This document shows positions 14,517-64,000 of a DNA stretch of 64,000 nt, piece after piece (positions within the stretch are counted from its first letter, which is position 1; every line of letters begins with the position of its first letter). Location of the stretch: assembly GCA_964608995.1 (NCBI GenBank), contig CAZSQS010000007.1, forward strand, positions 7,843-71,842, read 5' to 3'. This stretch comes from an uncultured Smithella sp. (GTDB taxonomy: Bacteria > Desulfobacterota > Syntrophia > Syntrophales > Smithellaceae). The notes below the pieces were generated by a model that saw only the letters and a list, made by a program, of their open reading frames with translations, was not told the DNA's origin and did not search any database. The position numbers were made by a program, and so were the translations under genes.

Positions 14517-14561
14517 CAGGCACATTACTGCATTGTTTGGAACGCACTAAAAATTCATTAA

Positions 14562-14598
14562 CCTGAGGAGGACGGGCTTTAAGCCCGCCCTCCTCAGG
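14562..14598 (+). terminator. Rho-independent terminator candidate after the first tail-bearing gene
   Basis: CCTGAGGAGGACGGGC / GCCCGCCCTCCTCAGG form a 16-bp stem with one mismatch and a 5-nt loop, followed by TATTTACATTTTT. Confidence 0.6.
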
Positions 14599-14614
14599 TA
14601 TTTACATTTTTCTT

Positions 14615-14649
14615 GTCCCGTAGCGTCCCATCGCGGGACAAATATGTCC
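14615..14649 (+). promoter_or_regulatory. Second copy of the GTCCCG...CGGGAC / GGACA-N4-TGTCC upstream inverted repeats
   Basis: GTCCCGTAGCGTCCCATCGCGGGACAAATATGTCC. The GGACA at 14636 is exactly 100 nt upstream of the GG at 14736. Confidence 0.45.
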
Positions 14650-14734
14650 GACCATCTGATGGCCACATCAGGCACGTTCACCTTATAAATCAATATCACT
14701 TAACAATACAATAGTTTACAAACCATGTGCCTCA

Positions 14735-14751
14735 TGGCACAGATATTGATT
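14735..14751 (+). promoter_or_regulatory. Sigma-54-like -24/-12 promoter candidate
   Basis: TGGCACAGATATTGATT has a perfect TGGCAC -24 box and TTGA at the -12 position. It lies 99 nt upstream of ATG 14835. Confidence 0.5.
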
Positions 14752-14834
14752 GTTGATGTGTGCCACAAAGAGATGCGCCGTAAATGGATTTTCGGCGGAA
14801 AATTAAAAAAAACAAACAGCGCGGAGGGGAAAAG

Positions 14835-15773
14835 ATGAAAAAGTTTTTATTTATAGTTCCAATTCTGTTTTTGGCATTTCTGATTGCCTCATCAAACGGT
14901 TACGCCCAGTGGTGGTGGTTCTCCAGTTCATCATCTTCCAGTTCAAGTTCGTCTTCCTCAAGTTCAAGTTCAAGTTCAGGTTCAACGTGGTGGTGGATTT
15001 CCAGTTCATCATCTTCCAGTTCGTCGTCCAGTTCTTCATCCTCTTCATCCTCAGGAGCCACAGGTTCAGTTGAAGCCAGAATTGAAGCGGGTGGAACCAT
15101 CCCGGCGGGAACCTACACGCTGACCCGGAAAATTTCCATCTCAAAAAGCGGACTGACCATCACGGCCAACAATGTCATTCTTGACGCGAAAAACTTAACC
15201 GACACGTCCTCGGGCGACGCCATCACCATCAGTGGCAGCAATAACAAGCTCATCGGCATCACCGTCAAGAATGCCGGACATAACGGCATATTAATCAAAG
15301 GCAACGGCAACACCCTCCAGAACTGCATCACGCATTCCAATAAGAACACAGGGATAAACATCAAGGGCAGCGCGGCCAACAACCTCATCACCGGCTGTAA
15401 ATCCTATAACAATTACGACACGCATACCTCCGGTGAAAATGCCGACGGCTTTGGCGTGAAGGATTGCACCGGCAGCGGCAATAAATTTGAAAACTGCGAA
15501 GCCTGGGATAATTCAGACGATGGCTGGGATTTCTGGGGCACGACGGGCGCCGTAACCGTCATCGGTTGTTATGCGCACGATAATGGAAGAGGTTCAGCCG
15601 GAGACGGCAATGGCTTCAAGCTGGGTGAAAGCGGCGTTTGCGGCAGGCATTATTTGAAAGATTGCACCGCCAAGAACAATCTCGCCTGCGGTTTTACGAA
15701 AAATGGCAACACCTGCACAATCACCTATGTCAATTGCGTCAGCAGCAATAACGGAAAGGTGGACAAACGGTAG
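14835..15773 (+). CDS. Secreted right-handed parallel beta-helix protein, pectate-lyase-like (PL9-like by motif) with N-terminal WWW-polyserine tail
   Basis: GGAGGGGAAAAG precedes ATG 14835, and the track start at 14784 lacks an RBS. Signal peptide MKKFLFIVPILFLAFLIASSNGYA precedes QWWWF-S19-GST-WWWI-S18. Repeated beta-helix turns (NNKLIGITVKNAGHNGILIKGNGNTLQNC...), GENADGFGVKD and DNSDDGWDFWG. Confidence 0.75.
   Translation: MKKFLFIVPILFLAFLIASSNGYAQWWWFSSSSSSSSSSSSSSSSSSSGSTWWWISSSSSSSSSSSSSSSSSSGATGSVEARIEAGGTIPAGTYTLTRKISISKSGLTITANNVILDAKNLTDTSSGDAITISGSNNKLIGITVKNAGHNGILIKGNGNTLQNCITHSNKNTGINIKGSAANNLITGCKSYNNYDTHTSGENADGFGVKDCTGSGNKFENCEAWDNSDDGWDFWGTTGAVTVIGCYAHDNGRGSAGDGNGFKLGESGVCGRHYLKDCTAKNNLACGFTKNGNTCTITYVNCVSSNNGKVDKR
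14907..15053 (+). repeat. WWW-polyserine tail module
   Basis: QWWWF, 19 Ser codons, GGT TCA ACG TGG TGG TGG ATT, 18 Ser codons, then GGA. Confidence 0.95.
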
Positions 15774-15903
15774 TTTTTTGTCGGATCAGAAAAAGGCGGC
15801 TATTTGAAAAAAGGCAGGTACCAAAAGGCTTCGGCGGATCAAATGAGACAAAGCCGTTTATTGCCGGAGCAAATATAAATCAGTTTTAAAGGGAGGGGAA
15901 AAG

Positions 15904-16710
15904 ATGAAAAAGTATTTATGGATGATTCCGGTTTTGTTTTTGGCATTCCTGATTGCCTCATCAAACGGTTATGCCCAGTGGTGGTGGTTCTCCAGCTCAT
16001 CATCTTCCAGTTCAAGTTCGTCTTCCTCAAGCTCAAGTTCAGGCTCAACCTGGTGGTGGATTTCCAGTTCCTCATCCTCCAGCTCATCCTCTTCCAGTTC
16101 GTCTTCGTCAAGCTCTTCGTCTTCAGGATCGGGTGGAACGATGACGATTACCAGCACGATTATCGTTAAAGCGGGGGCCACCTATGACGGCAAGGGCGTC
16201 ACCATCAAGGCCGTGGGGCTTGGCGACGGCAGTCAGGACGAAAATCAGAAACCCATTTTTCGGCTCGAAAACGGCGCAACGCTTAAAAACGTCAACATCG
16301 CCGCGCCCGGCGCAGACGGTGTGCATTGCTACGGCGGCTGCACCGTCACCAACGTGGTCTGGCAGGATGTGGGCGAGGATGCCCTGACGATTAAATCCTC
16401 CGGAACGGTCACAATCAATAATTGTAAATTTTACAAAGCCACCGACAAGGTCATTCAGGTCAACGCTGCAAGCACCCTGTATGTCAACAACAGTTCCGCC
16501 GACACCATGGGCAAATTTATTCGCCAGAATGGCGGAACGACGTTCACCTGCACATGGTATTTAAACGGCGTGAACATTAAAAATGCCTCGGAATGCATCG
16601 CGCGAACGGACAGCTCGACCACGAAACTTTATTACAGAAACCTGACCTACTCCAACGTCGGCACCTTGTGGAAGTTCCCCAATGCCGGCAGCCAGGTCAA
16701 ACCCTACTAG
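15904..16710 (+). CDS. Secreted pectate lyase, PL3-type, with N-terminal WWW-polyserine tail
   Basis: Same RBS string GGAGGGGAAAAG. Signal peptide MKKYLWMIPVLFLAFLIASSNGYA precedes QWWWF-S17-GST-WWWI-S21. The catalytic part (GDGSQDENQKPIFRLENGATLKNVNIAAPGADGVHCYGGCTVTNVVWQDVGEDALTIKSSG...FIRQNGGTTF) closely resembles Bacillus/Fusarium PL3 pectate lyases as I remember them. Confidence 0.85.
   Translation: MKKYLWMIPVLFLAFLIASSNGYAQWWWFSSSSSSSSSSSSSSSSSGSTWWWISSSSSSSSSSSSSSSSSSSSSGSGGTMTITSTIIVKAGATYDGKGVTIKAVGLGDGSQDENQKPIFRLENGATLKNVNIAAPGADGVHCYGGCTVTNVVWQDVGEDALTIKSSGTVTINNCKFYKATDKVIQVNAASTLYVNNSSADTMGKFIRQNGGTTFTCTWYLNGVNIKNASECIARTDSSTTKLYYRNLTYSNVGTLWKFPNAGSQVKPY
15976..16125 (+). repeat. 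WWW-polyserine tail module
   Basis: QWWWF, 17 Ser codons, GGC TCA ACC TGG TGG TGG ATT, 21 Ser codons, then GGA. Confidence 0.95.
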
Positions 16711-16919
16711 TCTGCGTTCAAGGCTGGTCTGGTTTATTTTTTTTCGACAAAGATGAGAAACACCGACATGCTCTTCCAGGGAAGGAAGATCAGGGCGCCC
16801 CAAGTCCATGAAAGGGTGCGGGGCGCCTAAACCTGGTCATACCCGATACCATCGGAAACCGCCATATCGGCCTTTGGACCATTGACATGAAAGCCGGATG
16901 AGTCCGCACGGAGGGGAAA

Positions 16920-18554
16920 ATGAGAAAAAGCTTTTTGATCTTTCCTGTTTTGTTTCTGGCATTGCTGGCAATAGCCACAACAAGCCATGCCCAGTGGTGG
17001 TGGATTTCGAGCTCATCTTCCTCTTCCAGCTCATCCTCCAGCTCTTCATCCTCAGGCTCCTCGTGGTGGTTTATCAGTTCATCATCTTCTTCATCCAGTT
17101 CGTCGTCCAGTAGTTCGTCGTCATCTTCTTCTTCTTCCTCCTCGTCGTCTTCATCGTCGAGTTCTTCGTCAGGTACGACGTTTAAAAACCCGCTTAACGG
17201 TTCCGGCCCTGACCCGTGGATGACTTACTATAACGGAAATTACTACATGGCGGCAACCACGTGGGGCGGCGCGAACACGGGTCTGACCATGCGCAAGGCG
17301 CCAATCATCGCGGCGTTGAAAACCGCGCCCCAGACGCGTATCTGGCAGGATTCGACCTCATCGCGTTGCTGCAATATGTGGGCGCCGGAGTTCTTCCTGC
17401 TTAACGGCCCCAACGGCTGGCGCTGGTATGGCTATTACACGGCGGGCCCGACGACCTGTTGCGACGGCCAGCGGCTCCATGTCATTGAAAGTGCGGGAAC
17501 CGACCCGATGGGACCCTATACCTATAGGGGTCAACTTTCCGATACCACCGGCGGATGGATGATTGACGGCAGCATCCTCCAGTTAAACGGCAAACTCTAC
17601 CTGCTGTTTTCCGCATGGAGCGGCAGTAATCAAAATGTTTACATCGTCGGCATGACCAATCCATGGAGTCTTACCGGCAACCGGGTGCTGCTCTCGACGC
17701 CAACCTACAGTTGGGAGAAACAGGGAGGCAACGTCAACGAGGGCCCCGTGGCGATCCAGAGAAATGGCAAGACGTCTGTAGTCTATTCCGCAAGCGCCTG
17801 CGCCAATCAAAATTACGCAATGGGCCAGATGACCCTGACGGGAACCAACCCGCTGGTGGCCTCTGCCTGGAGCAAGAAATCGACCGCCGTCTTCACAAGG
17901 GCCAACGGGGTTTACGGCCCCGGGCACAACACCTTCTTTACCTCCCCGGATGGATCGGAAACCTGGATGGTCTATCACGGCAATGCCTCTTCGACCGGCG
18001 GATGTGATATGTACCGCCAGCCGCATATCAAAAAGATCGCTTTTAACAGCGATAACACCCCCAGTTTGGGAAGCCCGATCAATCCGGCCAACTCCGTCAC
18101 CGTCCCCTCCGGGGATAAAGGCGCGGGCGCGCGGCCCGTCTATCGCATCGCCAACCGCAATAGCGCCAAGGTGTTGGAAGTCGCCAACTGTAACGCAGCG
18201 GATGGCACCAACATCCAGCAATACGCGTCACTGGGCAATACCTGCCAGCAGTGGACCACGCAGGATACCGACAGCGGGTATGTCATGATTGTGAATGTCG
18301 CTACCGGCAAACTTCTGGAAGCAGCGGGATGCGGCACATCGGATGGAACAAACATCCAGCAGTGGAGCTGGCTGAAAAACACCTGCCAGCAGTGGAAGCT
18401 GGTGACCACTACCAGCCCGTACGTGAAAATCATCAACCGCGCAAGCGGCAAGGTGCTGGATGTCTCCAACTGCTCCACCGCCAATGGCGGCAATGTCCAG
18501 CAATGGAGCGATCTGGGAAATTCCTGCCAGGAATGGCAGATCACATCACCGTAA
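16920..18554 (+). CDS. Secreted GH43-family glycoside hydrolase with C-terminal ricin-type (CBM13-like) beta-trefoil and N-terminal WWW-polyserine tail
   Basis: GGAGGGGAAA RBS. Signal peptide MRKSFLIFPVLFLALLAIATTSHA precedes QWWWI-S16-GSS-WWFI-S32. GH43-like motifs are GPDPWMTYYNGNYYM, WAPEF, GPGHNTFF and WMVYH. The C-terminal region has three QxW repeats (CQQWTT, CQQWKL, CQEWQI) with IQQY/IQQW/VQQW. Confidence 0.8.
   Translation: MRKSFLIFPVLFLALLAIATTSHAQWWWISSSSSSSSSSSSSSSSGSSWWFISSSSSSSSSSSSSSSSSSSSSSSSSSSSSSSSGTTFKNPLNGSGPDPWMTYYNGNYYMAATTWGGANTGLTMRKAPIIAALKTAPQTRIWQDSTSSRCCNMWAPEFFLLNGPNGWRWYGYYTAGPTTCCDGQRLHVIESAGTDPMGPYTYRGQLSDTTGGWMIDGSILQLNGKLYLLFSAWSGSNQNVYIVGMTNPWSLTGNRVLLSTPTYSWEKQGGNVNEGPVAIQRNGKTSVVYSASACANQNYAMGQMTLTGTNPLVASAWSKKSTAVFTRANGVYGPGHNTFFTSPDGSETWMVYHGNASSTGGCDMYRQPHIKKIAFNSDNTPSLGSPINPANSVTVPSGDKGAGARPVYRIANRNSAKVLEVANCNAADGTNIQQYASLGNTCQQWTTQDTDSGYVMIVNVATGKLLEAAGCGTSDGTNIQQWSWLKNTCQQWKLVTTTSPYVKIINRASGKVLDVSNCSTANGGNVQQWSDLGNSCQEWQITSP
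16992..17174 (+). repeat. WWW-polyserine tail module (second triplet is WWF)
   Basis: QWWWI, 16 Ser codons, GGC TCC TCG TGG TGG TTT ATC, 32 Ser codons, then GGT. Confidence 0.95.
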
Positions 18555-18597
18555 GAGAAAAAAGAAGCTATTAAATTCATGAAGGAAGGAGTTCACT

Positions 18598-19821
18598 ATG
18601 AAAGACAGGTTTTTTAAAAGAGGAATCTCCGTTCAGATGGCGCTGACCGGACTCGTTTTTGCGCTGGTTTTGTTTGCGGCAGGCGCTAATCAGGCTTTTG
18701 CGCTATCCGGCGATTACCGCACGCACGACCCCAGTATGATCCGGGCGACCAACGGCTGCTATTACGCCTTTTCCACCGGCGACAACGCCTACAATCGGGG
18801 AAACATCCAGATTCGCAGATCCTGCGATCTGGTCAGCGGCTGGAAGCTGCTTGGCACGGTCTTTACCACCGTCCCCTCCTGGATCAGCTCCGCAATCGGC
18901 TCGACGCCGGGAAATCTCTGGGCGCCGGATATCAATTACTTTAACAACAAATACTATCTGTACTATTCCGCCTCCACGTTCGGCTCGAACCGCTCGGCCA
19001 TCGGTCTGGCCACGGCTACAAACATCGAAGGCCCCTGGACGGATTCGGGTCAGGTGATTCGCTCCTCAACATCCAACAACTACAACTGTATCGATCCGGA
19101 AATCGCCTGGACCATCACCAACAATCAGCGCGCCGAGATGTGGCTGTTGTTCGGCTCCTTCTGGGACGGTATCAAAATGCGTCAGCTCAACAATTCGACC
19201 GGCAAACTCTCTACGACCAAAACCACGCTGTATTCACTGGCCTCCCGTGGCGGCGGCGCAATTGAGGCCGCCTCCGTCGCGTGGCGCAACGGGTATTACT
19301 ATCTGTTCGTTTCATTCGACAAATGCTGCAGCGGCACGAGCAGCACCTACCGCATCATGGTGGGCCGCTCCAAAAATATCACCGGGCCGTATGTCGATAA
19401 AAGCGGCGTGGATATGCGAAACGGCGGCGGCACGCAGGTTCTGACTAAATCCAGCAACATGGTCGGCCCCGGCGGCCAGGATGTCTTTCTTGACGGGTCA
19501 ACCTACCGCATGGTCTATCACTACTATGATTCCAACCAAAACGGCGACTTTCGGATGGCCATCCGGGATCTGAACTGGTCGGGCGACTGGCCCGCGGCAG
19601 GCTCCATGTCTTCTGCTGTCAGTTCGTCTTCGTCAAGTTCCTCCAGCTCGTCGAGTTCATCCTCCAGTTCTTCGTCCAGCTCGTCGTCCTCGAGTTCGTC
19701 TTCCTCGTCTTCAAGCTCATCGTCTTCGAGTTCGTCAGGATCAAGCTGGTGGTGGTCCACAAGTTCGTCTTCAAGCTCATCGTCTTCGAGTTCGTCAGGA
19801 TCAAGCTGGTGGTGGTTTTAA
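18598..19821 (+). CDS. Secreted GH43 arabinanase-like glycoside hydrolase with C-terminal WWW-polyserine tail
   Basis: GAAGGAAGGAG RBS only 43 nt after the previous gene. It has its own, different signal peptide (…LVLFAAGANQAFA). GH43 arabinanase-like motifs are YRTHDPSMI, LWAPDINYFNNKYYLYYSAS, DPEIAW, FGSFWDGIKM and GPGGQDVF. The C terminus is S39-GSS-WWW-ST-S12-GSS-WWWF-stop. Confidence 0.8.
   Translation: MKDRFFKRGISVQMALTGLVFALVLFAAGANQAFALSGDYRTHDPSMIRATNGCYYAFSTGDNAYNRGNIQIRRSCDLVSGWKLLGTVFTTVPSWISSAIGSTPGNLWAPDINYFNNKYYLYYSASTFGSNRSAIGLATATNIEGPWTDSGQVIRSSTSNNYNCIDPEIAWTITNNQRAEMWLLFGSFWDGIKMRQLNNSTGKLSTTKTTLYSLASRGGGAIEAASVAWRNGYYYLFVSFDKCCSGTSSTYRIMVGRSKNITGPYVDKSGVDMRNGGGTQVLTKSSNMVGPGGQDVFLDGSTYRMVYHYYDSNQNGDFRMAIRDLNWSGDWPAAGSMSSAVSSSSSSSSSSSSSSSSSSSSSSSSSSSSSSSSSSSSSSSGSSWWWSTSSSSSSSSSSSSGSSWWWF
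19621..19818 (+). repeat. C-terminal WWW-polyserine tail module containing an exact 52-nt direct repeat (19705-19756 and 19765-19816)
   Basis: Codon reading gives 39 Ser, GGA TCA AGC TGG TGG TGG TCC ACA, 12 Ser, GGA TCA AGC TGG TGG TGG TTT, then TAA. The 52-mer TCGTCTTCAAGCTCATCGTCTTCGAGTTCGTCAGGATCAAGCTGGTGGTGGT occurs twice with a 60-nt period. Confidence 0.95.
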
Positions 19822-19886: not shown

Positions 19887-19916
19887 TCCAAGATATCATT
19901 ATCGTATCTGGACCAC

Positions 19917-19994
19917 TCATTCCCGCGAAAGCGGGAATCCAGAACTCTTTAATAAGCCTGGATTCCGGGTCGCGCTTCGCTTGCCAGCAATGAC
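19917..19994. repeat. REP-like intergenic palindromic element (ATTCCCGC-N4-GCGGGAAT core)
   Basis: Perfect 8-bp stem with GAAA loop at 19919-19938. A second stem GGAATCCAG (19934-19942) / CTGGATTCC (19958-19966), then GGGTCGCGCTTCGCTTGCCAGCAATGAC. The core recurs at 59618-59637. Its translations give the SFPRKRESR / RLRGND-type pseudo-peptides. Confidence 0.7.
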
Positions 19995-55266: not shown

Positions 55267-56445
55267 TCAGGCCTTTTTCATTAAATATCCGTCTTTGAGC
55301 GCCCGGGCCAGTATCACGCCGGCGCGCACCAGGGACAGGCCTGTGGTTTCGCTGATCCTGGCCAGTGTCGCGGCGCCGCCTGAGATCGCATTGACCACGG
55401 TTTGCATTTCGGGGTCTTCCGTCTGCGGAACTTTTTTGACGTCGATCCGGTCTTCCCGACCGGGAAAATATGGCTTCAGAGCATCGCGCTCATCCGCCAG
55501 ACGGCAGGTATCCATCAAAACGAAATTGACGGGGTGGTTCATGTGGCCGGAGACAATTTTATTGGCGGCCACGTGAAATTCGCCCTCACGCAGCGACACC
55601 AGATCGACCAGGGCGTCTTCGCCCTGCAGAGACCCGAGAGAAGCGTCCAGGACCCGGCCATTTTTTATAGCGATGAAACCTTCCTGCGCCCCGGCCTTCA
55701 CATGAATCGTCCCCTCCTTGTCGAGTTGCTCAAAAATCTGCATCATGTCGATCAGAGAGATTTCATCGAGCCTTCCGCCAAGTATTTTTTCGGTTTGTTT
55801 CATTTTCCCCAGCATCATATCCATCCGGGAGGAGGCCATATTGGCGCATAAATCGACAAACGACTGGATTTTTGCTTTTTCAGCCGGTGTCGCATCAATA
55901 AATTCAACGCCCAGCTCGCAGATGTCTTTCGAGGTCTTGATCTTGCGGATGGCGCAAAACAAATGCATGTCGCTGTCCATCGCGTTGAAGATCACCCGGT
56001 AAAGCACATCGGAGGCCGGCTCTCTCGCCTCCCCGGCAGGAATGCGAAAACCGCATCCGCCTGCGCTGATGTCCGTCAGCGTCGCCTGCGATATAAAATT
56101 GCCGTCTTTGTCCAGAAACTGCGCCGGTAAATTCACCGCGACGCGCTTGAATTGCCGGATGGAGCATTGGTCGATCTTGTCCGGATATTTGCAGAACATG
56201 ACGGGGAAATAATGCGCGTTGATGAGCAGGATCTTCGTCTCGAATCCATAGGCGATGCCGTCTTTGAGAAAGCGCATCTTGCAGTGCGTGTTGGGTTTGA
56301 GCTGCGCCGCCGCGCCGGATGATTTCACAACGCCCGTGATGAGGAACACATCCTGCTTCCAGCCCAGAAGCTCAGTGGTCAGATAGGATTTGTAATAGGA
56401 TTCGATGGCGATGGGCAGCCCGACTTCAAAAACATGATTGTCCAT
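55267..56445 (-). CDS. PilZ domain - DUF4388 (PATAN-like) fusion protein
   Basis: AGGAGAGG precedes ATG 56445, so the track start at 56688 is an over-extension. PilZ-like RQFKRVAVNLPAQF...DISAGGCGFRI. C-terminal DUF4388-like ISLIDMMQIFEQLDKEGTIHV...GEDALVDLVSL. Confidence 0.7.
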   Translation of the reverse strand: MDNHVFEVGLPIAIESYYKSYLTTELLGWKQDVFLITGVVKSSGAAAQLKPNTHCKMRFLKDGIAYGFETKILLINAHYFPVMFCKYPDKIDQCSIRQFKRVAVNLPAQFLDKDGNFISQATLTDISAGGCGFRIPAGEAREPASDVLYRVIFNAMDSDMHLFCAIRKIKTSKDICELGVEFIDATPAEKAKIQSFVDLCANMASSRMDMMLGKMKQTEKILGGRLDEISLIDMMQIFEQLDKEGTIHVKAGAQEGFIAIKNGRVLDASLGSLQGEDALVDLVSLREGEFHVAANKIVSGHMNHPVNFVLMDTCRLADERDALKPYFPGREDRIDVKKVPQTEDPEMQTVVNAISGGAATLARISETTGLSLVRAGVILARALKDGYLMKKA

Positions 56446-56650
56446 GGAGCCTCTCCTGGCGGTATTGCGTTTCATGAAACGAAAACGGTTGTTCGAGAAA
56501 CTTCGAAGGTATTTGTAACACAAGTTCATCCAGAGTTCTACGGTATTTGATGAATGAACCGGGGCAAGAGACGTCCTTCGTGAGTAATTCCATGACAAGT
56601 GGATCAGTGATGCAGAATTGGCAATCCCATGGTGGCGCATGAAGATCACC

Positions 56651-56679
56651 TTGACACTTATTCCGGCGTTTTCTATACT
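56651..56679 (+). promoter_or_regulatory. Sigma-70-type promoter candidate
   Basis: TTGACA (56651-56656), a 17-nt spacer, then TATACT (56674-56679). It lies 36 nt before GTG 56715. Confidence 0.6.
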
Positions 56680-56714
56680 TCGCTTCACAAAGATTTTCGG
56701 ACAAGGGGGAATGC

Positions 56715-57137
56715 GTGAAGAATCTGGTGATTTTATCCGGCGGTTTTGATCCGATTCAGATGGGCCATGTGTATATGATGGAAGCCGCGTCGCTTTTGGG
56801 CGAGATTGTGATTTGCCTCAACAGCGATGAGTGGCTTCGGCGAAAAAAGGGCAAACCATTCATGACCTGGATTGAACGGGCGACGATTGTCGGCAATATG
56901 AAACAGGTGATTGATGTTTTGCCCATGAATGATGAGGACAATACCGCCTGTGACGGCATTCGATGCGCGCATGAGAAATATCAGAAGCAGTATAACGCCA
57001 TCCATTTCGGCAACGGCGGCGAGAGAAACCCTGTTTCAACGCCCGCCAAAGAACAGGAATTATGCAAAAAACTGGGCATCCGGTTAATCTGGGATTTGGG
57101 CGAAAGGGATAAAGTGCCTCCCTCGGGCTGGATTTGA
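56715..57137 (+). CDS. Cytidylyl/adenylyltransferase-family small nucleotidyltransferase
   Basis: GTG start with AAGGGGGA upstream. ILSGGFDPIQMGHVYMM contains the (H/T)xGH nucleotidyltransferase motif. Confidence 0.65.
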   Translation: MKNLVILSGGFDPIQMGHVYMMEAASLLGEIVICLNSDEWLRRKKGKPFMTWIERATIVGNMKQVIDVLPMNDEDNTACDGIRCAHEKYQKQYNAIHFGNGGERNPVSTPAKEQELCKKLGIRLIWDLGERDKVPPSGWI

Positions 57138-57181
57138 GATTTACAAAAAACTTTTTTGGCTGCGGGATGTGTTTTACCGGA

Positions 57182-58630
57182 TTACTTTTTCCGGGGCTCA
57201 AACTGATTTTTGGCCATCCAGAAAGACGGCAGGTGGCGGATTAAATACAAAAGACTCCTGCGATGTTCCCAGAGGCGACCGCGAAAGCGCCTGCGCCAGC
57301 CCCAATCCGAATAGAAGCGTTTGACGTATTCGTTATAGAGCTGATCGAGCCGTTCCTTCGAGGCAATCCCTTTCGGGACAAACACAAAATTCAGACAGTT
57401 CATTTGACGCCAGTCTTCCTCAAACGTTCCTTCCTCGCGGATGGTTGACCAAAGCGGCGCGCCGGGAAAGGGCGTGAACTTGGCCATATTCATGTCGTCG
57501 AGCCCCAGGGAAATAATAAAATCGGACGTGCGTTTGACCGACTGCTCCGTTTCACCCGGAAGCCCCATCATGAAAAGCCCCTTGGCGCGAAGTCCCGCCG
57601 CCTGAATGCGCCTTACCGTGTCGCACACCTCGTCGAGCGATACACCGGACTTATGGCGCTGCAGCATCTCCGGATCGGCCGATTCAATGCCCAGCGACAC
57701 CATCAGGCAGCCCGCGTCCTTGAGCATGCGCAGAAGCTCATCGTCCGTATAGCCCACGCGCACGGCGCAGTTGAAATGCATCCCCAGAGGCGCTCGCGAA
57801 AGCTTTTCGTACAGATCGACAATACGCCTTCGATTGGCGGTGAAAAGGTCGTCGTAAATATTCACATGCCGCGCGCCGAAGCGATCACGCAGATATTTCA
57901 TGTGCTCGTAAATGTAATCAGCGGAGTTGTAGCGGAACCCTTTTTGAAAAACGGAGCGGTCACAGTAGGAGCAGGCATACATGCAGCCGCGCGACGTAAT
58001 CATCGTGGCGCCCGGCGTCTGAATGTAGCTGAAAAGCGGCAGATGATAGTCGCGCGGGAACCCGCGCAGCAATTCATAGGCGGGAAAAGGCAGATCATCA
58101 AGATTGGTGATATGCCGGCGCGGCGCATTGGCCACGGCGCCGCCCGGTTCGCGCCGGATCAGGCCGGGGATGCCGGCCGGGTCGTCGCCTGCGGCCAGTT
58201 CACTCATCGTCTGCTCCCCCTCACCTGCCACCATAAAATTGAAGGCGGGATACGCCTCGAGCAGTTTTTCGCGAAGCGCCGATACATGAACGCCGCCGCA
58301 GACCGTCACAATGCCGCGACGGCTTTTTTTGATCATCTGTGCAAGCTCGGCCGCATCGGGAAAGGACGACGTGGTGGTGGAAAAGCCGACAATGTCCGGG
58401 GAAAAAGCCAGAATATCGGACGCCTGTTTTTTCAGATCAACCGGCGCACCGGGCCCCAGACAGTCATAGACAAAGACATCATGTCCGTCGCGCCCAAGCC
58501 ATGCGGCGATGGAGAGCATCCCCTGCGGCACCATGCGGTTGGCGATGTCGGTCAGATCACGCTTTCCCGGAAACCAGTTGGAACCGCGCGGATGAACCAG
58601 CACGATACGTTTTTTTGGTGAAGCGCTCAT
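57182..58630 (-). CDS. B12-binding-domain radical SAM enzyme
   Basis: N-terminal cobalamin-binding-like Rossmann region (RIVLVHPRG...), then TSRGCMYACSYCDRSVF (CxxxCxxC). It starts 12 nt downstream of the KS-like gene on the same strand. Confidence 0.8.
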   Translation of the reverse strand: MSASPKKRIVLVHPRGSNWFPGKRDLTDIANRMVPQGMLSIAAWLGRDGHDVFVYDCLGPGAPVDLKKQASDILAFSPDIVGFSTTTSSFPDAAELAQMIKKSRRGIVTVCGGVHVSALREKLLEAYPAFNFMVAGEGEQTMSELAAGDDPAGIPGLIRREPGGAVANAPRRHITNLDDLPFPAYELLRGFPRDYHLPLFSYIQTPGATMITSRGCMYACSYCDRSVFQKGFRYNSADYIYEHMKYLRDRFGARHVNIYDDLFTANRRRIVDLYEKLSRAPLGMHFNCAVRVGYTDDELLRMLKDAGCLMVSLGIESADPEMLQRHKSGVSLDEVCDTVRRIQAAGLRAKGLFMMGLPGETEQSVKRTSDFIISLGLDDMNMAKFTPFPGAPLWSTIREEGTFEEDWRQMNCLNFVFVPKGIASKERLDQLYNEYVKRFYSDWGWRRRFRGRLWEHRRSLLYLIRHLPSFWMAKNQFEPRKK

Positions 58631-58642
58631 GAGGGGGCTTTC

Positions 58643-59605
58643 TTAAGTTGAAGCCGCCACAATGATGGCGGGCTTTCCTGAATCCGAACAATTGTAGTGC
58701 ATCAACACGGAAGCTTGATTGTGACGCATGGCGTAGGCCAGACCGAAGGCGGACGCGGTTGGGTAAATCCCGCAGTGACGCAGATAATCCTGCGTTTGCA
58801 TCCCCTCAGGCGCATCGGGGTTTTTCAAGCGAAACCCCGGTAGCCAGATGCGTTCTTTTGCGCCGGAAGCGCTTGAACACAGAGACGCAAATTCATCGCT
58901 TTTCGCATACTGCCGGGGCGTCATTTTTTCGGAATTCATCCTGACCGTCAGGAGATTCCCGATTTCGTTTCCCCCCTCTGAACCCAGCAAAAGCCAGGAG
59001 CTGCCCTCCCCAATGGGCAAAGCGCGGGAATTATCTGAAAGCGCGTTCATTCGCTGGCGGTATTCTTCGACTGTCGGCGTATAGACATCGCAACCGCCCA
59101 CCAGCGCATAATCCAGCTCGCCGCTTTCAAGGTAGCTTTGCGCAAGCCACAGTGCGGATTCAAACGAGAGTTCCTCATCAGACAAGGTGAGAATGATGCC
59201 CCGGATCCCGCATGAACGCGCCAGGAAAAAAGCGGCCGCATTACTGACAGAGTTGGCAAATTGATTCGGGCTGGGAAATCCTCCGTCATGCTTGAAGACC
59301 TGTGTGACAAACGGCAGGATCTCATCGCCATTGCCCAGCCCCGTCGCCAGAAATATTCCTGTTTTTTTACCGTCAAGCCTTCCGGGCTCAACCTGGTTGA
59401 GGCAAGCGATGGCGCCCGCACAGACCATTTTGATGAAACGCCCGGCCCGCCGCATCGGCTGCCCCATCACCTTTTGCACCAGCGGATCGCAATTAAGCGG
59501 CAGAAGCGCCTCTTCCCAGGGCGAATCTTCATTGGGCGAAAGCGAAGGCCCCAGATAACTGGCTGCGACAACGGCTATGGGTGCGGTATGTTGTTTTTCT
59601 TGCAT
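58643..59605 (-). CDS. Beta-ketoacyl synthase-like partner protein lacking the catalytic Cys (chain-length-factor-like)
   Basis: Thiolase-fold-like sequence. By eye, LTLSDEELSFESAL aligns with FTLSMACVSSSHAL of the adjacent KS, which places Glu where the active Cys sits. Start is taken at ATG 59605. The track N-terminal MDSRLRGNDRNN comes from the REP hairpin. Confidence 0.6.
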   Translation of the reverse strand: MQEKQHTAPIAVVAASYLGPSLSPNEDSPWEEALLPLNCDPLVQKVMGQPMRRAGRFIKMVCAGAIACLNQVEPGRLDGKKTGIFLATGLGNGDEILPFVTQVFKHDGGFPSPNQFANSVSNAAAFFLARSCGIRGIILTLSDEELSFESALWLAQSYLESGELDYALVGGCDVYTPTVEEYRQRMNALSDNSRALPIGEGSSWLLLGSEGGNEIGNLLTVRMNSEKMTPRQYAKSDEFASLCSSASGAKERIWLPGFRLKNPDAPEGMQTQDYLRHCGIYPTASAFGLAYAMRHNQASVLMHYNCSDSGKPAIIVAAST

Positions 59606-59614
59606 ATTATTTCT

Positions 59615-59641
59615 GTCATTCCCGCGCAGGCGGGAATCCAC
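59615..59641. repeat. Second copy of the REP-like hairpin (ATTCCCGC-GCAG-GCGGGAAT) between the two KS genes
   Basis: GTCATTCCCGCGCAGGCGGGAATCCAC has the same 8-bp stem as at 19919-19938. Confidence 0.7.
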
Positions 59642-59655
59642 TTTCTCATCAAATC

Positions 59656-60825
59656 CTACAACTTTTCAATCACGTAGCTTGTACAGGTTGCGCCGAATCC
59701 GAAAAAGTTAAAAAGATACGCCCCGCGCGGCGCGGGCAGGTTTTGCTGCGACGGTGCAAATCCAATGTCCGGATCCATCTCGGAAAAGCCGAAAGTAACC
59801 GGCAGCGTGCCTTCCTCCAGACAGGACAGCCACAGCGCCGTCTCCACCGCGCCCGCCGCGCCCAGGCCATGGCCGATTGCGCCCTTGAGCGAAATCACCG
59901 GTGGCAACGAATCGCCAAACACTTTCAAAAGCCCCCGCCCCTCGGACAGATCATTGTCGCGCGTGCCGGTGCCGTGCGCCTTGACCACCACAATCTGCTC
60001 TGGGCGGATCTCAGCACGCGTCAACGCCTCGTCCACCACCGTCCGGACCGTTTCGCCGTCCGTGCCGGCGGAGGTCAGGGAAGAGTTGTCGTTAAAAAGA
60101 TACCCGCCCCTGAATACGTAGCGGTTAGAGGCCGCCGTTTTCCCACCGCCCGCCTCCAGAACCAGACATGACGCGCCTTCGCCAATCTGCATGCCGCTTC
60201 GCCTATTGCAAAACGGGCGGCAGCGCTCTGCGTCATACAGCAGAAGACTGGCAAAGCCGTGCAGCGTCATATTCAAAAGCGGCTCAAAGCCGATGACTAT
60301 GGCCCGTCGAATTTTCCTGTGCTTTAAAAGGTCCGTCGCCATGACCAGCGCATGCGAGCTGGAAACACAAGCCATGCTCAGGGTAAAGCTCATACCGCCG
60401 ATGCCGTGTTTCTCGGCAATCAGCTGCGTGACTTCACCGGGCCCCCGGTTGCGGCAGGAGATGGGCGGGGATTCCCGATCGGGATGAAGCCGCACGGATT
60501 CGGTGAATTCAAATTCGTTGCGGATGAACAGGCCGCCGGTGGTGCCGACTAAAAGGCAGCTTTCGGCGATTTCATCGGGCGAGAGCTGGGCCTGGGCAAA
60601 TGCCTCTGCAATCGACGAATCGAGCATGGCCAGCGATTTTTCCAGGGGGTTGCCGTCATAGGCCACTTCAAAGGCGTTAAATTCGCCTTTCGTTAAATGC
60701 GACGAGGCACAGGGTCCAGCGGGTTTCATGCGTCCGGCAATCAGATTGCGCGCAGATTCAGATGCGCTCCACCCCAGCGTGGTGACGGCGCCCCAGCCAC
60801 GGATATGGATATCGTCCGATCTCAC
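59656..60825 (-). CDS. Beta-ketoacyl-ACP synthase (KAS I/II-like)
   Basis: Active-site context LSMACVSS, and His motifs KAHGTGT and IGHGLGAAG. The GTG start overlaps the ACP stop (GTGA). Confidence 0.85.
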   Translation of the reverse strand: MRSDDIHIRGWGAVTTLGWSASESARNLIAGRMKPAGPCASSHLTKGEFNAFEVAYDGNPLEKSLAMLDSSIAEAFAQAQLSPDEIAESCLLVGTTGGLFIRNEFEFTESVRLHPDRESPPISCRNRGPGEVTQLIAEKHGIGGMSFTLSMACVSSSHALVMATDLLKHRKIRRAIVIGFEPLLNMTLHGFASLLLYDAERCRPFCNRRSGMQIGEGASCLVLEAGGGKTAASNRYVFRGGYLFNDNSSLTSAGTDGETVRTVVDEALTRAEIRPEQIVVVKAHGTGTRDNDLSEGRGLLKVFGDSLPPVISLKGAIGHGLGAAGAVETALWLSCLEEGTLPVTFGFSEMDPDIGFAPSQQNLPAPRGAYLFNFFGFGATCTSYVIEKL

Positions 60826-61133
60826 TTTTTAACCTTCGGCGCAGCAATGACAAAATCCGCCAGGGAGTCAAACGACTGCATCGCCTGCGCCGCCGTGGAG
60901 GCGTTTTTCAGCTCGACGCCGAAAGTATAGCGAAGCTCCATGGCAATTTCCATCGCATCGAGCGAATCGAGCTTGAGCGGCCCGGACCCCCCGATAAAGG
61001 GAACATCCGTGGGCACATCCTCCGCTTTCACGTCCTGGACATCGCAGGCCCGGATGACCAGTTCCTTCAATTTGAAAATCAAATCCTCACGCGAGGACAC
61101 ATTTAATTCCGAATATGCCTTCTCTAAATCCAT
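60822..61133 (-). CDS. Acyl carrier protein
   Basis: GGAAGGAGAG precedes ATG 61133. The phosphopantetheine attachment motif is LDSLDAMEIAMEL. 103 aa. It overlaps the ABC-2 permease 3' end by 10 nt. Confidence 0.8.
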   Translation of the reverse strand: MDLEKAYSELNVSSREDLIFKLKELVIRACDVQDVKAEDVPTDVPFIGGSGPLKLDSLDAMEIAMELRYTFGVELKNASTAAQAMQSFDSLADFVIAAPKVKK

Positions 61134-62242
61134 TGAACTCTCCTTCCGGCGACATAAAAGCAGATTCCCGCGAATCCTGTCAATATAATTAATTTGGGCG
61201 CGATGGCGGCAAGCGACGCGTCGCGCAAAAAGATATCCAGATAGGCCTGATGCGCCCAATACATGGGTGAAATCATAGCCGCCTTCTTCATCACGAGCGG
61301 CATGACCGCATGCGGAAACATAATCCCGCCGAAAACACCCATCAGCACCGCCCCCGTGGCCGCAAGCGTTGTCGCCTGTTCCTGCGTCCGTCCCAGCGCC
61401 GCGACCATGACGCCAAACCCGGTTGTAGCGGCTGCCACAACAAGCGTTACCGGAATTAAATGCCAGGGGTGTCCCCCCAGATGAAAGGCATGGATGACAA
61501 AGCGGGACATGACAAAAACCCCCATGAGCATCATTAAAACAAACTGAATAATATTAATGAGATAATAAGGAAATATCTTTCCCAGGGTCAGCAGAGCGGG
61601 GCTGATCGGATATGTTTTAAGACGCTGGAGCGTGCCATCGTTTTTTTCTCTCAAAAATCCAATGGACATGGGAATCGCAATAAAAAACATCGCGAAAATG
61701 GCATAGGCCGGCACCGAATGCTGAAGCGGTGTCGGCAAATCACGGTTGGCCCTGGTTTTTTCAACAATGAGCGTCGCGATAACCGCATCGAGGTTCTCAA
61801 GGCCCATGACGACCTCCACGGTCGCCGTGGTAATCAGCGATCGCGCCGCCATCTTATAGCCCGCGTCAATCGACGGCTCGAAATAAAGCGCCACGGGACG
61901 CTCCCCTTCTTCAAACCCCTTGGGAATCGTGACGATAAGCTGCGTCTTGCCGTCTTCGAGCATCCGCTCGTCGCTGATGGCCGCAGGCTGTGAGACGACT
62001 TCAATCATTGGATGGGACTTGATTTTTTCTTCGAGGAGGTTCGCCTTGTAAGAGAGGCTTTCGTTTTTCACCGCCACCCGGATCTTGCGCCCGGTCAGCT
62101 TGTCCGTCCAGACCCCCTCCATAGCCAGCGACAAAAAGAAGATGAGCGCCACCGGCATCAAAAACAAAAGCAGAATCGTCTGCCGATCGCGAAGCAGAAT
62201 CAGCATTTCCTTGCGGATCATTTCCTTGAATTGTCGAAGCAT
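61124..62242 (-). CDS. ABC-2-type transporter permease
   Basis: N-terminal KEMLILLRDRQTILLLFLMPV, a large extracytoplasmic loop, then five further TM helices typical of ABC-2 permeases. No ATPase gene is adjacent. Confidence 0.7.
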   Translation of the reverse strand: MLRQFKEMIRKEMLILLRDRQTILLLFLMPVALIFFLSLAMEGVWTDKLTGRKIRVAVKNESLSYKANLLEEKIKSHPMIEVVSQPAAISDERMLEDGKTQLIVTIPKGFEEGERPVALYFEPSIDAGYKMAARSLITTATVEVVMGLENLDAVIATLIVEKTRANRDLPTPLQHSVPAYAIFAMFFIAIPMSIGFLREKNDGTLQRLKTYPISPALLTLGKIFPYYLINIIQFVLMMLMGVFVMSRFVIHAFHLGGHPWHLIPVTLVVAAATTGFGVMVAALGRTQEQATTLAATGAVLMGVFGGIMFPHAVMPLVMKKAAMISPMYWAHQAYLDIFLRDASLAAIAPKLIILTGFAGICFYVAGRRVQWI

Positions 62243-62444
62243 TTCGTTACATCCACACTGAACCAGATTGAGTATCGTTGTCCGGGCTTGAGCCCCATTA
62301 TCATAAATCTCTTGCCTAAAGCTAGTCCTTTGCGCCTTCCCCCGAAAAGACACCGGGACTTGGGACTATCCCCGATGTAAATACAATGACAAGACCGTGT
62401 ACAACGCGCATATTTACTTGATTTTATGTCACTACTTCACTAAG

Positions 62445-62476
62445 GGATCAAAAAGGAGAATTGCAATTGTTGATCC
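62445..62476 (+). promoter_or_regulatory. Nested inverted repeat upstream of / overlapping the START-domain gene start (operator candidate)
   Basis: GGATCAA aaaggag AATTGCAATT g TTGATCC. The outer arms are 7 bp and the inner perfect palindrome is 10 bp. Confidence 0.35.
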
Positions 62477-63207
62477 AAAGAAAACATCTCGCAGATGCGC
62501 CGACCCGAAGGCCGTCAATACGGCGATGGATAATGCTGTCCGGATTGGGACTGATCGCGTTGCTTGTTTGTATGCGGGGGTCATGGACATGGGCTGCGAC
62601 CGAACCGCAATGGAAGTTCCTTTATTCCCAAGACGGCATCGAAGTCTTTGCCGGCGCAGGCACTTTACTGCCCACATTCAAGGCGGAGGCTGTTATCCCG
62701 GTCAACATTGTGGATTTGCTGGCGGTGATTTCCGATGTGTCCCGCCGTAAAGAATGGCTGCCGGACGTTACCTTGAGCCGCATTTTGGAAGGAGACATCG
62801 AATCTCGCGTTGTGATTTATGAACGGATCAACATGCCCTGGCCCGTCAAAAACCGGGACTGCGTCGTGGAGTCCGTGATTACGAAAGATTTTGATCGCGG
62901 CGAAGTGGTGGTGACATATAAACAAGTCACACACAAGGAAGTGCCCCCTGATCCCGGCTATGTGCGCATACCGGTAGTCGAAGGACAGATGCGCTATCGC
63001 TTTATCGATGACGGTCACACTGCGGCATTTTATGTGACAACCCTCGATTTTGGCGGGATCCTTCCCCAGTGGGTGGCGTCACTTGGGATTGAAAGAGTGC
63101 CCGCTTATTCACTCCAGGCCATTGTCAAGCAGGTCGAGCGCACCCGGGGCCAGTATAAAGCGTTTGTAGAAAAACAGCGGGCCAGGTTGAACTTCAAATT
63201 CAAATAA
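62467..63207 (+). CDS. Secreted START/SRPBCC lipid-binding domain protein
   Basis: START-like core (WKFLYSQDGIEVFA...RKEWLPDV...NRDCVV...). Signal peptide IMLSGLGLIALLVCMRGSWTWA. The start is ambiguous: TTG 62467 lies 8 nt after AGGAG, and ATG 62533 is the first ATG. Confidence 0.65.
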   Translation: MLIQRKHLADAPTRRPSIRRWIMLSGLGLIALLVCMRGSWTWAATEPQWKFLYSQDGIEVFAGAGTLLPTFKAEAVIPVNIVDLLAVISDVSRRKEWLPDVTLSRILEGDIESRVVIYERINMPWPVKNRDCVVESVITKDFDRGEVVVTYKQVTHKEVPPDPGYVRIPVVEGQMRYRFIDDGHTAAFYVTTLDFGGILPQWVASLGIERVPAYSLQAIVKQVERTRGQYKAFVEKQRARLNFKFK

Positions 63208-63241
63208 AAAAGAAGTAAAAGCGTTCGGGCTCCATGGAATC

Positions 63242-64000
63242 TTATGCCGACGGCAGATGAGTCAGGGCAACATCCAGAAGCGCCTGATGATCGATCTTGC
63301 CGAGTAGATTTCGCGGCAGCTCCGAAACGATTTCAAAACGCTTGGGAACCTTAAAGCGCTCCACCCTTTCTTGCAGCCAGTGGCGAATATCCGCAGGCGT
63401 CAATGTGTGCCCCGACCGGACGATAATGCAGGCATGCATGCGCTGTCCGAACTCGGCATCCGGCAGCACGACGATGGCAGCCTCTTCAATGAAGGGATGT
63501 TCTCGTAAAACACCTTCAACCTCCCGTGGATAAATATTCTCTCCTCCGGAGATCAACATGTCGTCGGAGCGGCCACAGACGAACAGATGCCGTTTGTCAT
63601 CCCATTGCCCGAGATCTCCGGTATCCAACCATCCATCGGCATCGGCCTTGAGCACCAATGGACCACGAACAAGGATTCTTCCGACCAGTTGCGCCGGCCG
63701 GCCTTCAAAATCCACGAGGCGCACCTCATTGCCCGGCAGCGGCCGCCCCACGGTTCCCGGCGCTTGGGACAGCATCTCCGGCAAAGCGACGGAGACAATC
63801 CCGGCTTCGCTGGAACCGTAAAGGTTGTACAAAATGGGTCCCAAAAGGGCCATCAGGCGCTGGCAAAGTTGCGGAGTAAGGGGCGCGCTGCCGGTGATAA
63901 CGGCGGAAACACGGTCAAAGCCCTCTCCTGAATTCGCCCAGCGCTGCAGTAATGTGGGAACAGAGACCACAATGGGCTTTTCAGGCATCGTAGCCCTTTG
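63242..64000 (-). CDS. AMP-dependent synthetase/ligase (acyl-adenylating enzyme), N-terminal part outside window
   Basis: The frame stays open to the window edge. ANL-family C-terminal motifs are YGSSEAG, WLDTGDLG, RSDDMLISGGENIYPREVE and the final LGKIDHQAL. Confidence 0.8.
   Translation of the reverse strand, partial: QRATMPEKPIVVSVPTLLQRWANSGEGFDRVSAVITGSAPLTPQLCQRLMALLGPILYNLYGSSEAGIVSVALPEMLSQAPGTVGRPLPGNEVRLVDFEGRPAQLVGRILVRGPLVLKADADGWLDTGDLGQWDDKRHLFVCGRSDDMLISGGENIYPREVEGVLREHPFIEEAAIVVLPDAEFGQRMHACIIVRSGHTLTPADIRHWLQERVERFKVPKRFEIVSELPRNLLGKIDHQALLDVALTHLPSA

Follow-up and report, generated by a model that had tools for sequence, protein, structure and literature searches.

What can a ketosynthase, a ketosynthase-like protein without its catalytic cysteine, an acyl carrier protein and a cobalamin-binding radical S-adenosylmethionine (SAM) enzyme be doing together in a strictly packed set of genes? 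The question is raised by one end of a 64,000-nucleotide stretch of DNA, referred to here as the window, from an uncultured Smithella sp. (Smithellaceae, Syntrophales; GenBank assembly GCA_964608995.1, contig CAZSQS010000007.1, positions 7,843 to 71,842). A preliminary description made from the sequence alone had placed these genes, an ABC-2 permease, a secreted START protein and an acyl-adenylating enzyme in a single lipid cluster resembling the aryl-polyene (APE) type. It is suggested here, with a probability of about 0.55, that the five genes of the minus strand are a lineage-specific, truncated accessory module of the Dar type to which a B12-binding radical SAM enzyme (B12-rSAM, or rSAM) has been appended, and that this set works as proposed below. 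On the comparisons presented here, the known part of the locus is the accessory module of dialkylresorcinol (DAR) and flexirubin clusters, of which the window would carry a cut-down copy; the part that appears to be new is the joining of a Dar-type module lacking DarB to an uncharacterised but widely conserved B12-rSAM. The genes and the one non-coding element within them are as follows.

62242..61124, minus strand: ABC-2 permease (DarJ-like), first gene of the operon; 372 aa, the product on the NCBI record
61133..60822, minus strand: acyl carrier protein (ACP; DarC-like), 103 aa, DSL motif with Ser57
60825..59656, minus strand: active ketosynthase (KS; DarD-like), 389 aa, GTG start
59605 (ATG) or 59641 (GTG)..58643, minus strand: KS-like protein without the catalytic Cys, 320 or 332 aa
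59615..59634, minus strand: GC-rich hairpin resembling a repetitive extragenic palindromic (REP) element, within the 50-nt spacer between the KS and KS-like genes
58630..57182, minus strand: B12-binding radical SAM enzyme, 482 aa, last gene of the operon

These five genes (62242..57182) are one tightly coupled operon. As read from the sequence, the permease and ACP genes overlap by exactly 10 nt at the permease stop, the ACP stop and the KS start share the four nucleotides GTGA, and only 12 nt separate the KS-like gene from the rSAM gene; the permease reading frame can be extended upstream to 62353. The gene content, positions, overlaps and domains of the preliminary description were all found again in the list of open reading frames (ORFs), the domain scans and the raw sequence. 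The annotation is corrected for two genes, the KS-like gene being mostly called 'hypothetical' and the rSAM variously BchE or YgiQ. The REP-like hairpin, CCCGCCTGCGCGGGAATGAC, has a second copy with three mismatches at 19916-19935, 40 kb away, where chance predicts none, and when translated it yields a spurious-looking extension, MDSRLRGNDRNN, of the 332-aa call of the KS-like protein. Between 55000 and 64000, Rfam models detected no riboswitch and no other RNA at E<=1.

The identity of the central proteins is best approached through their domains and active sites. Pfam recognises PF12698 (ABC2_membrane_3) in the permease at 115.6 bits and both PF00109 and PF02801 in the KS; the ACP scores 20.6 bits with PF00550 against a cut-off of 20.8, and 48/48 of its sequence matches in the PDB are ACPs. 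Alignment with E. coli FabF shows the Cys-His-His triad of the KS to be intact (ACVSS, HGTGT and GH). None of the 16 full-length orthologues has lost the Cys, either His or the active-site Lys, and a seventeenth, in the related locus L028, is a 257-aa fragment that retains the Cys. In the KS-like protein, where only the N-terminal domain PF00109 is recognised (29.9 bits), the same alignment places Glu at the position of the catalytic Cys (SDEELSF) and both His are gone; every one of the 18 orthologues with sequence at this site has the Glu, and they too lack both His. An AlphaFold (AF2) model built from 27 sequences (pLDDT 77, pTM 0.84) matched a ketosynthase-type thiolase fold or a chain-length factor (CLF) in every listed PDB entry with a probability of 1.0, the highest TM-scores belonging to CLF chains (6kxe_B, the ishigamide CLF, 0.63; 6smo_C, 0.61). 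Sequence and model together indicate that the KS-like protein is a catalytically dead protein of thiolase fold and probably a CLF-like partner, and by analogy the KS and this partner would form a KS/CLF-like heterodimer. The predicted CLF fold beside an active KS is reminiscent of the KS/CLF pairs of type II polyketide synthases (ishigamide Iga11/Iga12, AntDE), from whose CLFs the partner in the window differs by the Glu at the Cys position and by an identity of only 10-13%. At this position Gln is typical of CLFs.

A housekeeping role of these proteins in type II fatty acid synthesis, as FabF and AcpP, was rejected, the NCBIfam scores falling well below the cut-offs (fabF TIGR03150 on the KS, 131 bits against 494; acyl_carrier TIGR00517 on the ACP, 22 against 70). 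The best NCBIfam models are PRK09185 for the KS (169 against 407) and PRK09184 for the ACP (39 against 70), again below the cut-offs; we take these two models to represent the KS and ACP of APE clusters. Unlike the APE, xanthomonadin and flexirubin clusters, the window contains no ketoreductase, dehydratase, thioesterase, aryl-starter (aryl-acid adenylating) enzyme, LolA-like or MMPL export protein or second ACP. The analogy with aryl polyenes was a step in the right direction, but the precise relative of the operon is the Dar accessory module of flexirubin and dialkylresorcinol clusters.

The evidence for this comes from related loci. An alignment-based scan with the rSAM, limited to one genome per species, returned 80 loci (61-84% identity), which with L001 make 81, spanning Smithellaceae, other Syntrophales, Desulfobacterales, Myxococcota, Spirochaetota and Bacillota metagenome-assembled genomes (MAGs); the co-occurrence of genes in them was counted by tblastn. 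In the Smithellaceae the order of genes is LpxL-like acyltransferase, DarG, DarH, ABC ATPase, ABC-2 permease, ACP, KS, KS-like protein and rSAM; ahead of this series there is usually an HpnN-like fusion of an MMPL transporter with a methyltransferase, and the DarG-DarH pair is sometimes duplicated. The 136-aa protein of these operons is identified as DarG (132-137 bits against an NCBIfam cut-off of 70) and their BtrH_N/DUF4872 protein as 'BtrH-related acyltransferase DarH' (378-398 bits against 300); in 15 Smithellaceae relatives the orthologous operon encodes both at scores above these curated limits. The ATPase directly upstream of the permease is DrrA-like. Beside DarG and DarH in L001 and L002 lie counterparts that are 62-92% identical to the operon genes of the window (76% for the permease and 92% for the ACP in L001). 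In L050 and L055 the rSAM orthologue itself directly follows a DarG-DarH pair, and in L064 the two are 4.5 kb apart.

More distant modules have the same plan. A look-up of DarH relatives added three Desulfobacterota loci (L089-L091), in which a series ABC ATPase-ABC-2-ACP-KS-X, with X a protein of 281-290 aa, is located near DarG-DarH. Identity to the window is 29-31% for the ABC-2 permease (E 1e-51 to 1e-59 with L090 and L091), 30-36% for the ACP and 33-37% for the KS, and the KS-like protein matches the gene after the KS in L089 and L091 at 25-26% (E ~1e-20). Among published clusters, that of Azoarcus BH72 reads darA, darB, a hypothetical gene, BtrH-like, ABC ATPase, a toxin-antitoxin insert, ABC permease, ACP, KS and a hypothetical gene (PMC3949708), and those of C. 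pinensis and F. johnsoniae read darA, darB, G, H (BtrH), I (ATPase), J (permease), C (ACP) and D (KS) (PMC12968099). The window keeps the permease-ACP-KS-partner portion of these clusters (darG-H-I-J-C-D in C. pinensis and F. johnsoniae, darD-E-F-I-C-J-K in Azoarcus BH72), and it is in this DarJ-DarC-DarD order of genes that its likeness to the published clusters lies. It differs from them in lacking DarG, DarH and the ATPase, none of which, nor any other ABC ATPase (by tblastn), is found in the whole 64 kb, and in the appended B12-rSAM; the earlier view of this enzyme as a non-classical addition is borne out, as the published aerobic dar clusters list none. Since order and homology match those of the relatives and of published dar clusters, the operon in the window most probably represents the distal part of a Dar-type module together with the rSAM. 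Resorcinol formation is defined by DarA and by the StlD/DarB-family ketosynthase, which makes the cyclohexanedione/resorcinol ring. With DarB from L090 (NF005293, 540 bits against 450) as query, tblastn gave no match in either the window or the 81 rSAM loci, and a classical dialkylresorcinol is therefore an unlikely product. Plasmids were searched by tblastn for a reference dar cluster, and the matches were limited to distant (<32%) BtrH-like genes of Acinetobacter and actinomycetes.

The rSAM itself has the architecture expected of class B (cobalamin) radical SAM enzymes, with a predicted N-terminal B12 domain (PF02310, 73 bits) and a radical SAM core (PF04055, 96.8 bits) in which C216, C220 and C223 of the CxxxCxxC motif (C216-x3-C220-x2-C223) are invariant. 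It remains below the cut-off of every NCBIfam model, including HpnJ (170/578), ApyD (161/750), BchE (132/481), AprD4 (112/500) and TIGR04072 (106.6/360); its relatives in the PDB are AprD4, TokK, TsrM and OxsB. Among 1.84 billion representatives of 50% clusters, only five full-length sequences are at least 44% identical to it and the rest reach at most 40%, and none of the nearest representatives hits the cut-off of a named family. Orthologues with 61-86% identity occur in the 80 species-representative genomes and in metagenomes, and the best matches (78-86%) are labelled Smithellaceae, Smithella or Syntrophaceae. With the BchE/HpnJ group, non-methylating enzymes that supply two of the best-scoring named models, the rSAM shares its domain architecture and its occurrence in anaerobes, where O2-dependent chemistry is unavailable. 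It differs from that group in scoring far below both cut-offs and in standing beside an ACP/KS module instead of hopanoid or porphyrin genes. The combination of a B12-rSAM with an ABC-2 permease, and ApyD as second-best model, led us to consider a ribosomally synthesised and post-translationally modified peptide; this was rejected, as the ACP, KS and dead KS, all with Dar synteny, lie between the two genes. The literature searched on Smithella radical SAM/ketoacyl and on aryl polyene/radical SAM does not describe the module.

The association of this enzyme with the KS pair is conserved. Close relatives were defined by an rSAM at least 75% identical and at least 3 kb of upstream sequence (n=18); in 15 of these Smithellaceae loci a KS-like gene ends 0-240 nt upstream of the rSAM and is itself preceded by KS, ACP and ABC-2 genes. 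An orthologous five-gene block is present in 16 Smithellaceae loci, with three further cases at contig edges, and a pair of active and dead KS adjoins the rSAM orthologue also in the distant MAGs L029, L062, L068 and L072. Where at least 5 kb is available on both sides, a KS lies within the flanks in 26/38 loci and at least one recurrent lipid-cluster family in 31/38. The preliminary description had allowed that rSAM homologues in other genomes might not be conserved together with the KS and ACP genes. Because the KS-like gene stands beside the rSAM in 15/18 close relatives and in distant MAGs, the related loci do not show such a separation, and they bear out its view of the KS, Cys-less partner, ACP and B12-rSAM as a real unit.

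How the unit might work can be outlined. The dedicated ACP would be malonylated by housekeeping enzymes, and the KS and its Cys-to-Glu partner, as a KS/CLF-like heterodimer, would run a defined condensation on it. The product would be a beta-ketoacyl-ACP or a short defined acyl-ACP, which is likely because the operon encodes no ketoreductase, dehydratase or enoyl reductase. Substrates of this kind are needed by Dar pathways for the chemistry of DarB. The B12-rSAM, translationally coupled to the dead KS, may then tailor the acyl chain by O2-independent radical chemistry, either by C-methylation or by a BchE/HpnJ-like formation or rearrangement of C-C bonds. In the relatives, DarH, a BtrH-type acyl-ACP acyltransferase, and the LpxL-like acyltransferase would hand the product on, and export could proceed through the ABC-2/ATPase pair and the MMPL-methyltransferase protein; if the pathway is complete in the genome of the window, the partners for handover and export would be encoded elsewhere.

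Several observations weigh against this interpretation. The rSAM orthologue occurs with no KS within 10 kb in 12 of the 38 loci with full flanks, and three of the 18 close relatives (L008, L020 and L024) have no KS near it. Its neighbours in such loci are an LpxL-like acyltransferase, an MMPL-methyltransferase protein or a GT2 glycosyltransferase, which suggests that the rSAM may act on something other than an ACP-bound chain. An incomplete pathway is possible, in that the permease has no ATPase and the 64 kb contain neither DarG, DarH nor the LpxL-like acyltransferase. The likeness of the KS-like protein to Azoarcus darK and to the corresponding gene of Bacteroidota clusters is one of position. 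The PDB entry 9s5h, which from its Cys-to-Val chain we infer to be the anammox amxFabF2/amxFabFmut heterodimer, is not named as such in the text of the paper, and in the literature searched no biochemistry was found for members of the module or for the Dar G-J, C and D genes.

The loci without a KS lead to the main rival, which we regard as possible though clearly the less probable: the rSAM would act on a finished lipid, its anchor or its head group in the manner of HpnJ, not on an ACP-bound chain, and its adjacency to the KS genes would reflect operon packaging. The model for this is the remodelling by HpnJ of a glucosaminyl head group after glycosyltransfer and deacetylation. HpnJ is indeed the best-scoring named model, but at 170 bits against 578 it is barely above ApyD and BchE. 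In the 10-kb flanks of the 52 rSAM loci outside Smithellaceae the commonest close neighbours are a NodB-type polysaccharide deacetylase (15/52), a small membrane protein (20/52), an AMP-ligase (11/52), a GT2 glycosyltransferase (6/52), a GT25 glycosyltransferase (9/52) and an HpnN-like MMPL-methyltransferase protein (9/52), and in L008 the rSAM directly follows the LpxL-like acyltransferase. That the deacetylase is of the NodB type counts the other way, HpnK belonging to a different (YdjC-like) deacetylase family. The final ~45 residues of the rSAM (57182-57310) form an Arg/Trp/Phe-rich stretch, FYSDWGWRRRFRGRLWEHRRSLLYLIRHLPSFWMAKNQF, that is kept in the family consensus and looks like an amphipathic segment or helix at a membrane interface, which favours the rival. 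Neither a glycosyltransferase nor a deacetylase is present in the window, however, and the spacing of 0-240 nt that couples the rSAM to the dead KS, in the window and in the same 15 close relatives, argues for an action on the ACP-bound chain.

Outside Smithellaceae the rSAM clusters are large. They contain a FabF pair, a PS-DH dehydratase, a 4HBT thioesterase, two further rSAMs, a true TIGR04072 B12-rSAM as a separate gene (fam23, 390 bits against 360), a phytoene-desaturase-like enzyme, PlsC, a phenylacetyl/coumarate-CoA-ligase-like enzyme, a NodB-type deacetylase, GT2/GT25 glycosyltransferases and an MMPL-methyltransferase protein. Published aryl-polyene, flexirubin and xanthomonadin clusters list an MMPL exporter with a methyltransferase, an LpxL-type acyltransferase, a deacetylase, a glycosyltransferase, a phenylacetyl-CoA-ligase-like enzyme, a KS with a partner consisting of the N-terminal KS domain only, and MipA (PMC3949708, PMC12968099), families that recur as neighbours of the rSAM in the related loci; Rattray et al. 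(2009) described synteny between anammox bacteria and Desulfotalea with gene families like those of the rSAM clusters. As these neighbours match the flexirubin/xanthomonadin/arcuflavin sets and the anammox/Desulfotalea sets, the rSAM appears to be a conserved component of the aryl-polyene/Dar/'ladderane-like' lipid toolkit of anaerobes. The FabG-like short-chain dehydrogenase/reductase (SDR), dehydratase, thioesterase and phytoene-desaturase-like enzyme of these related clusters were searched for in the window and not found.

The ladderane connection deserves separate consideration. Cluster I of anammox bacteria comprises amxACP, amxFabZ, a PDH-like gene, amxFabF2/amxFabFmut and a B12-rSAM, and its FabF2 and FabFmut have been shown to form a KS/CLF-like heterodimer (bioRxiv 10.64898/2026.05.19.726425). 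The window resembles it in combining, in one operon, a dedicated ACP, an active FabF-type KS, a partner without the triad and a cobalamin rSAM. On this core logic the operon might be a homologue of the ladderane system that makes ladderane-like cyclised lipids, a reading that we consider very improbable. The KS and the KS-like protein do find their best PDB sequence matches in a single entry (9s5h_B and 9s5h_C), the dead chain of which has Val at the Cys position as in amxFabFmut, and in Desulfobacterota the rSAM orthologue is often located beside TIGR04072-type rSAMs and phytoene-desaturase-like genes. But the KS match to 9s5h_B is hardly above that to ordinary FabFs (106 against 105 bits), the rSAM of the window reaches only 107 bits where TIGR04072 requires 360, FabZ, the PDH-like gene and any phytoene-desaturase-like gene are missing from the window, and Desulfotalea, the non-anammox bacterium tested, yielded no ladderanes (Rattray 2009). 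The dead KS also differs, being ~412 aa with Val or Thr at the Cys position in anammox bacteria and 320 aa with Glu in the window.

Two further arrangements of the rSAM were seen among the related loci. The MAG of Syntrophus sp. PtaB.Bin001 has two members of the rSAM family, on the contigs L014 and L022, with identities of 77% and 76% to the enzyme of the window; each is followed by a gene of 522 aa, and the available sequence contains neither a KS nor a Dar gene. L032 carries at 13924-19158 on the minus strand a paralogous module, ABC-2, ACP, KS, dead KS (356 aa) and B12-rSAM, in the same order as the window. The rSAM of that module belongs to another family (23% identity), and the window-type orthologue is found ~5 kb away, adjoining PS-DH, thioesterase and a FabF pair.

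It remains to be considered where the module ends, and why its permease has no ATPase. The features on either side of the operon are these.

62243..62532: breakpoint and divergent intergenic region, 290 bp between the operon and the START gene
62533 (or 62461)..63207, plus strand: START/SRPBCC protein, PF01852 at 50.6 bits
63242..>64000, minus strand: FadD-like AMP-ligase, C-terminal half, Pfam AMP-binding and AMP-binding_C
56715-57137, plus strand: cytidylyltransferase-like protein, 140 aa, convergent with the rSAM gene
55267-56688, minus strand: PilZ/PilZNR/DUF4388 protein, just downstream of the operon

The resemblance to L001, L002 and other relatives sets in precisely with the permease start codon; upstream of that codon there is none. 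A misassembly at the junction between the ABC-2 and START genes can be dismissed, as three independent Logan assemblies agree across it with 100% identity, and several samples contain it; the adjacency of START gene and operon was seen only in contigs of the same species. The START protein, whose N-terminus reads RRPSIRRW-IMLSGLGLIALLV-...TWA/A, carries a probable signal peptide, and no homologue of it occurs in any of the 81 related loci. The AMP-ligase, 513 aa at full length in L087, is convergent with the START gene; its NCBIfam matches are to generic FadD-type models only and fall below the cut-off. The preliminary description had looked to the sequence past 64000 for co-conserved neighbours. 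The Logan contigs extend ~1.9 kb past that point and reveal only an SDR of 310 aa upstream of the ligase, PRK07201/PRK05866-like (L087 3101-4263, corresponding to about 64780-65940 of the window), and then a fragment of a VgrG-like gene; no dehydratase, acyltransferase or ATPase is found in them. The fragment contains NELRLKDKAGSEEVYLQGEKDW, which we take to be a typical VgrG motif, and the ligase-SDR pair would accordingly lie downstream of a type VI secretion spike gene.

A fuller cluster, covering 56715-64000 and beyond, in which the AMP-ligase activates the starter and the secreted START protein carries the product through the periplasm to the exporter, was the view of the preliminary description and now seems improbable. 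START, FadD-like ligase and SDR are all related to lipids, the START gene and the operon share the 290-bp divergent region, and clusters of the super-family that include an AMP-ligase exist (fam14; a ligase of 578-628 aa in L004 and L007). However, the START homologue is found in 0/81 loci, the ligase and SDR show only a generic similarity of 20-28% to the ligases and SDRs of related clusters, the ligase-SDR pair forms a unit of its own downstream of the VgrG-like gene and convergent with the START gene, and homology with the relatives breaks exactly at the permease start. From this break and the lack of orthologues in the 81 loci, the START gene and the ligase-SDR pair appear to be separate transcription units at a rearrangement breakpoint and not members of the cluster. 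The cytidylyltransferase-like gene was likewise rejected as a member, being convergent with the rSAM gene, and neither it nor the PilZ/PilZNR/DUF4388 gene has a homologue in any of the related loci. The permease had been described as an orphan. It has no ATPase in the 64 kb, but with a DrrA-like ATPase in the relatives this appears to be a derived state, the upstream half of the module having been lost or moved in a rearrangement.

If such a rearrangement took away DarG, DarH, the ATPase and the acyltransferase, the five genes that are left might no longer be a working pathway. This would account for the missing upstream half and for a breakpoint right at the permease start codon, and the region that now lies upstream shows no clear excess of promoter-like sites over shuffled sequence (7 against 4.7 +/- 2.1). 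We nevertheless think a relic unlikely. All five ORFs are intact with their catalytic motifs kept, the junction recurs in several samples, and dN/dS against the relatives lies between 0.04 and 0.30 across all five genes (0.04-0.10 for the ACP, ~0.09 for the rSAM), which indicates purifying selection on all five; with long branches and dS near saturation, these ratios are no proof of recent constraint. A truncated but working Dar-type module with its rSAM is the interpretation that we prefer.

If so, a single, strongly conserved and unnamed B12-rSAM family, present in MAGs of Desulfobacterota, Myxococcota, Spirochaetota and Bacillota, goes together with FAS-like KS and ACP genes and with genes of the Dar and aryl-polyene type, and the 'ladderane-like' clusters of non-anammox anaerobes are thereby linked to the flexirubin, DAR and APE pigment lipids. 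With its ACP, KS, dead KS and rSAM the set is compact enough for the reaction to be sought by reconstitution in vitro, and the operon offers a testable entry to the chemistry of rSAMs in these 'ladderane-like' clusters. A bolder but improbable extension is that the rSAM family comprises O2-independent, BchE-like enzymes that form C-C bonds, by cyclising or coupling, on the beta-ketoacyl-ACP of the KS pair, so providing strict anaerobes with a route to carbocyclic or cross-linked lipids independent of DarA and DarB, and that B12-rSAMs have broadly replaced O2-dependent steps of Dar, flexirubin and aryl-polyene pathways. One arrangement fits the idea of such a replacement. In L089 (8155-9460) and L090 (8123-9517), on the minus strand, a KS of the StlD/DarB family (540 bits against 450) is directly preceded by a different B12-rSAM of 464 aa, with HpnR as its best model and 23% identity to the rSAM of the window. 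This gene occupies the usual position of DarA, divergent from DarG-DarH, and its product may take the place of the DarA aromatase without a need for oxygen.

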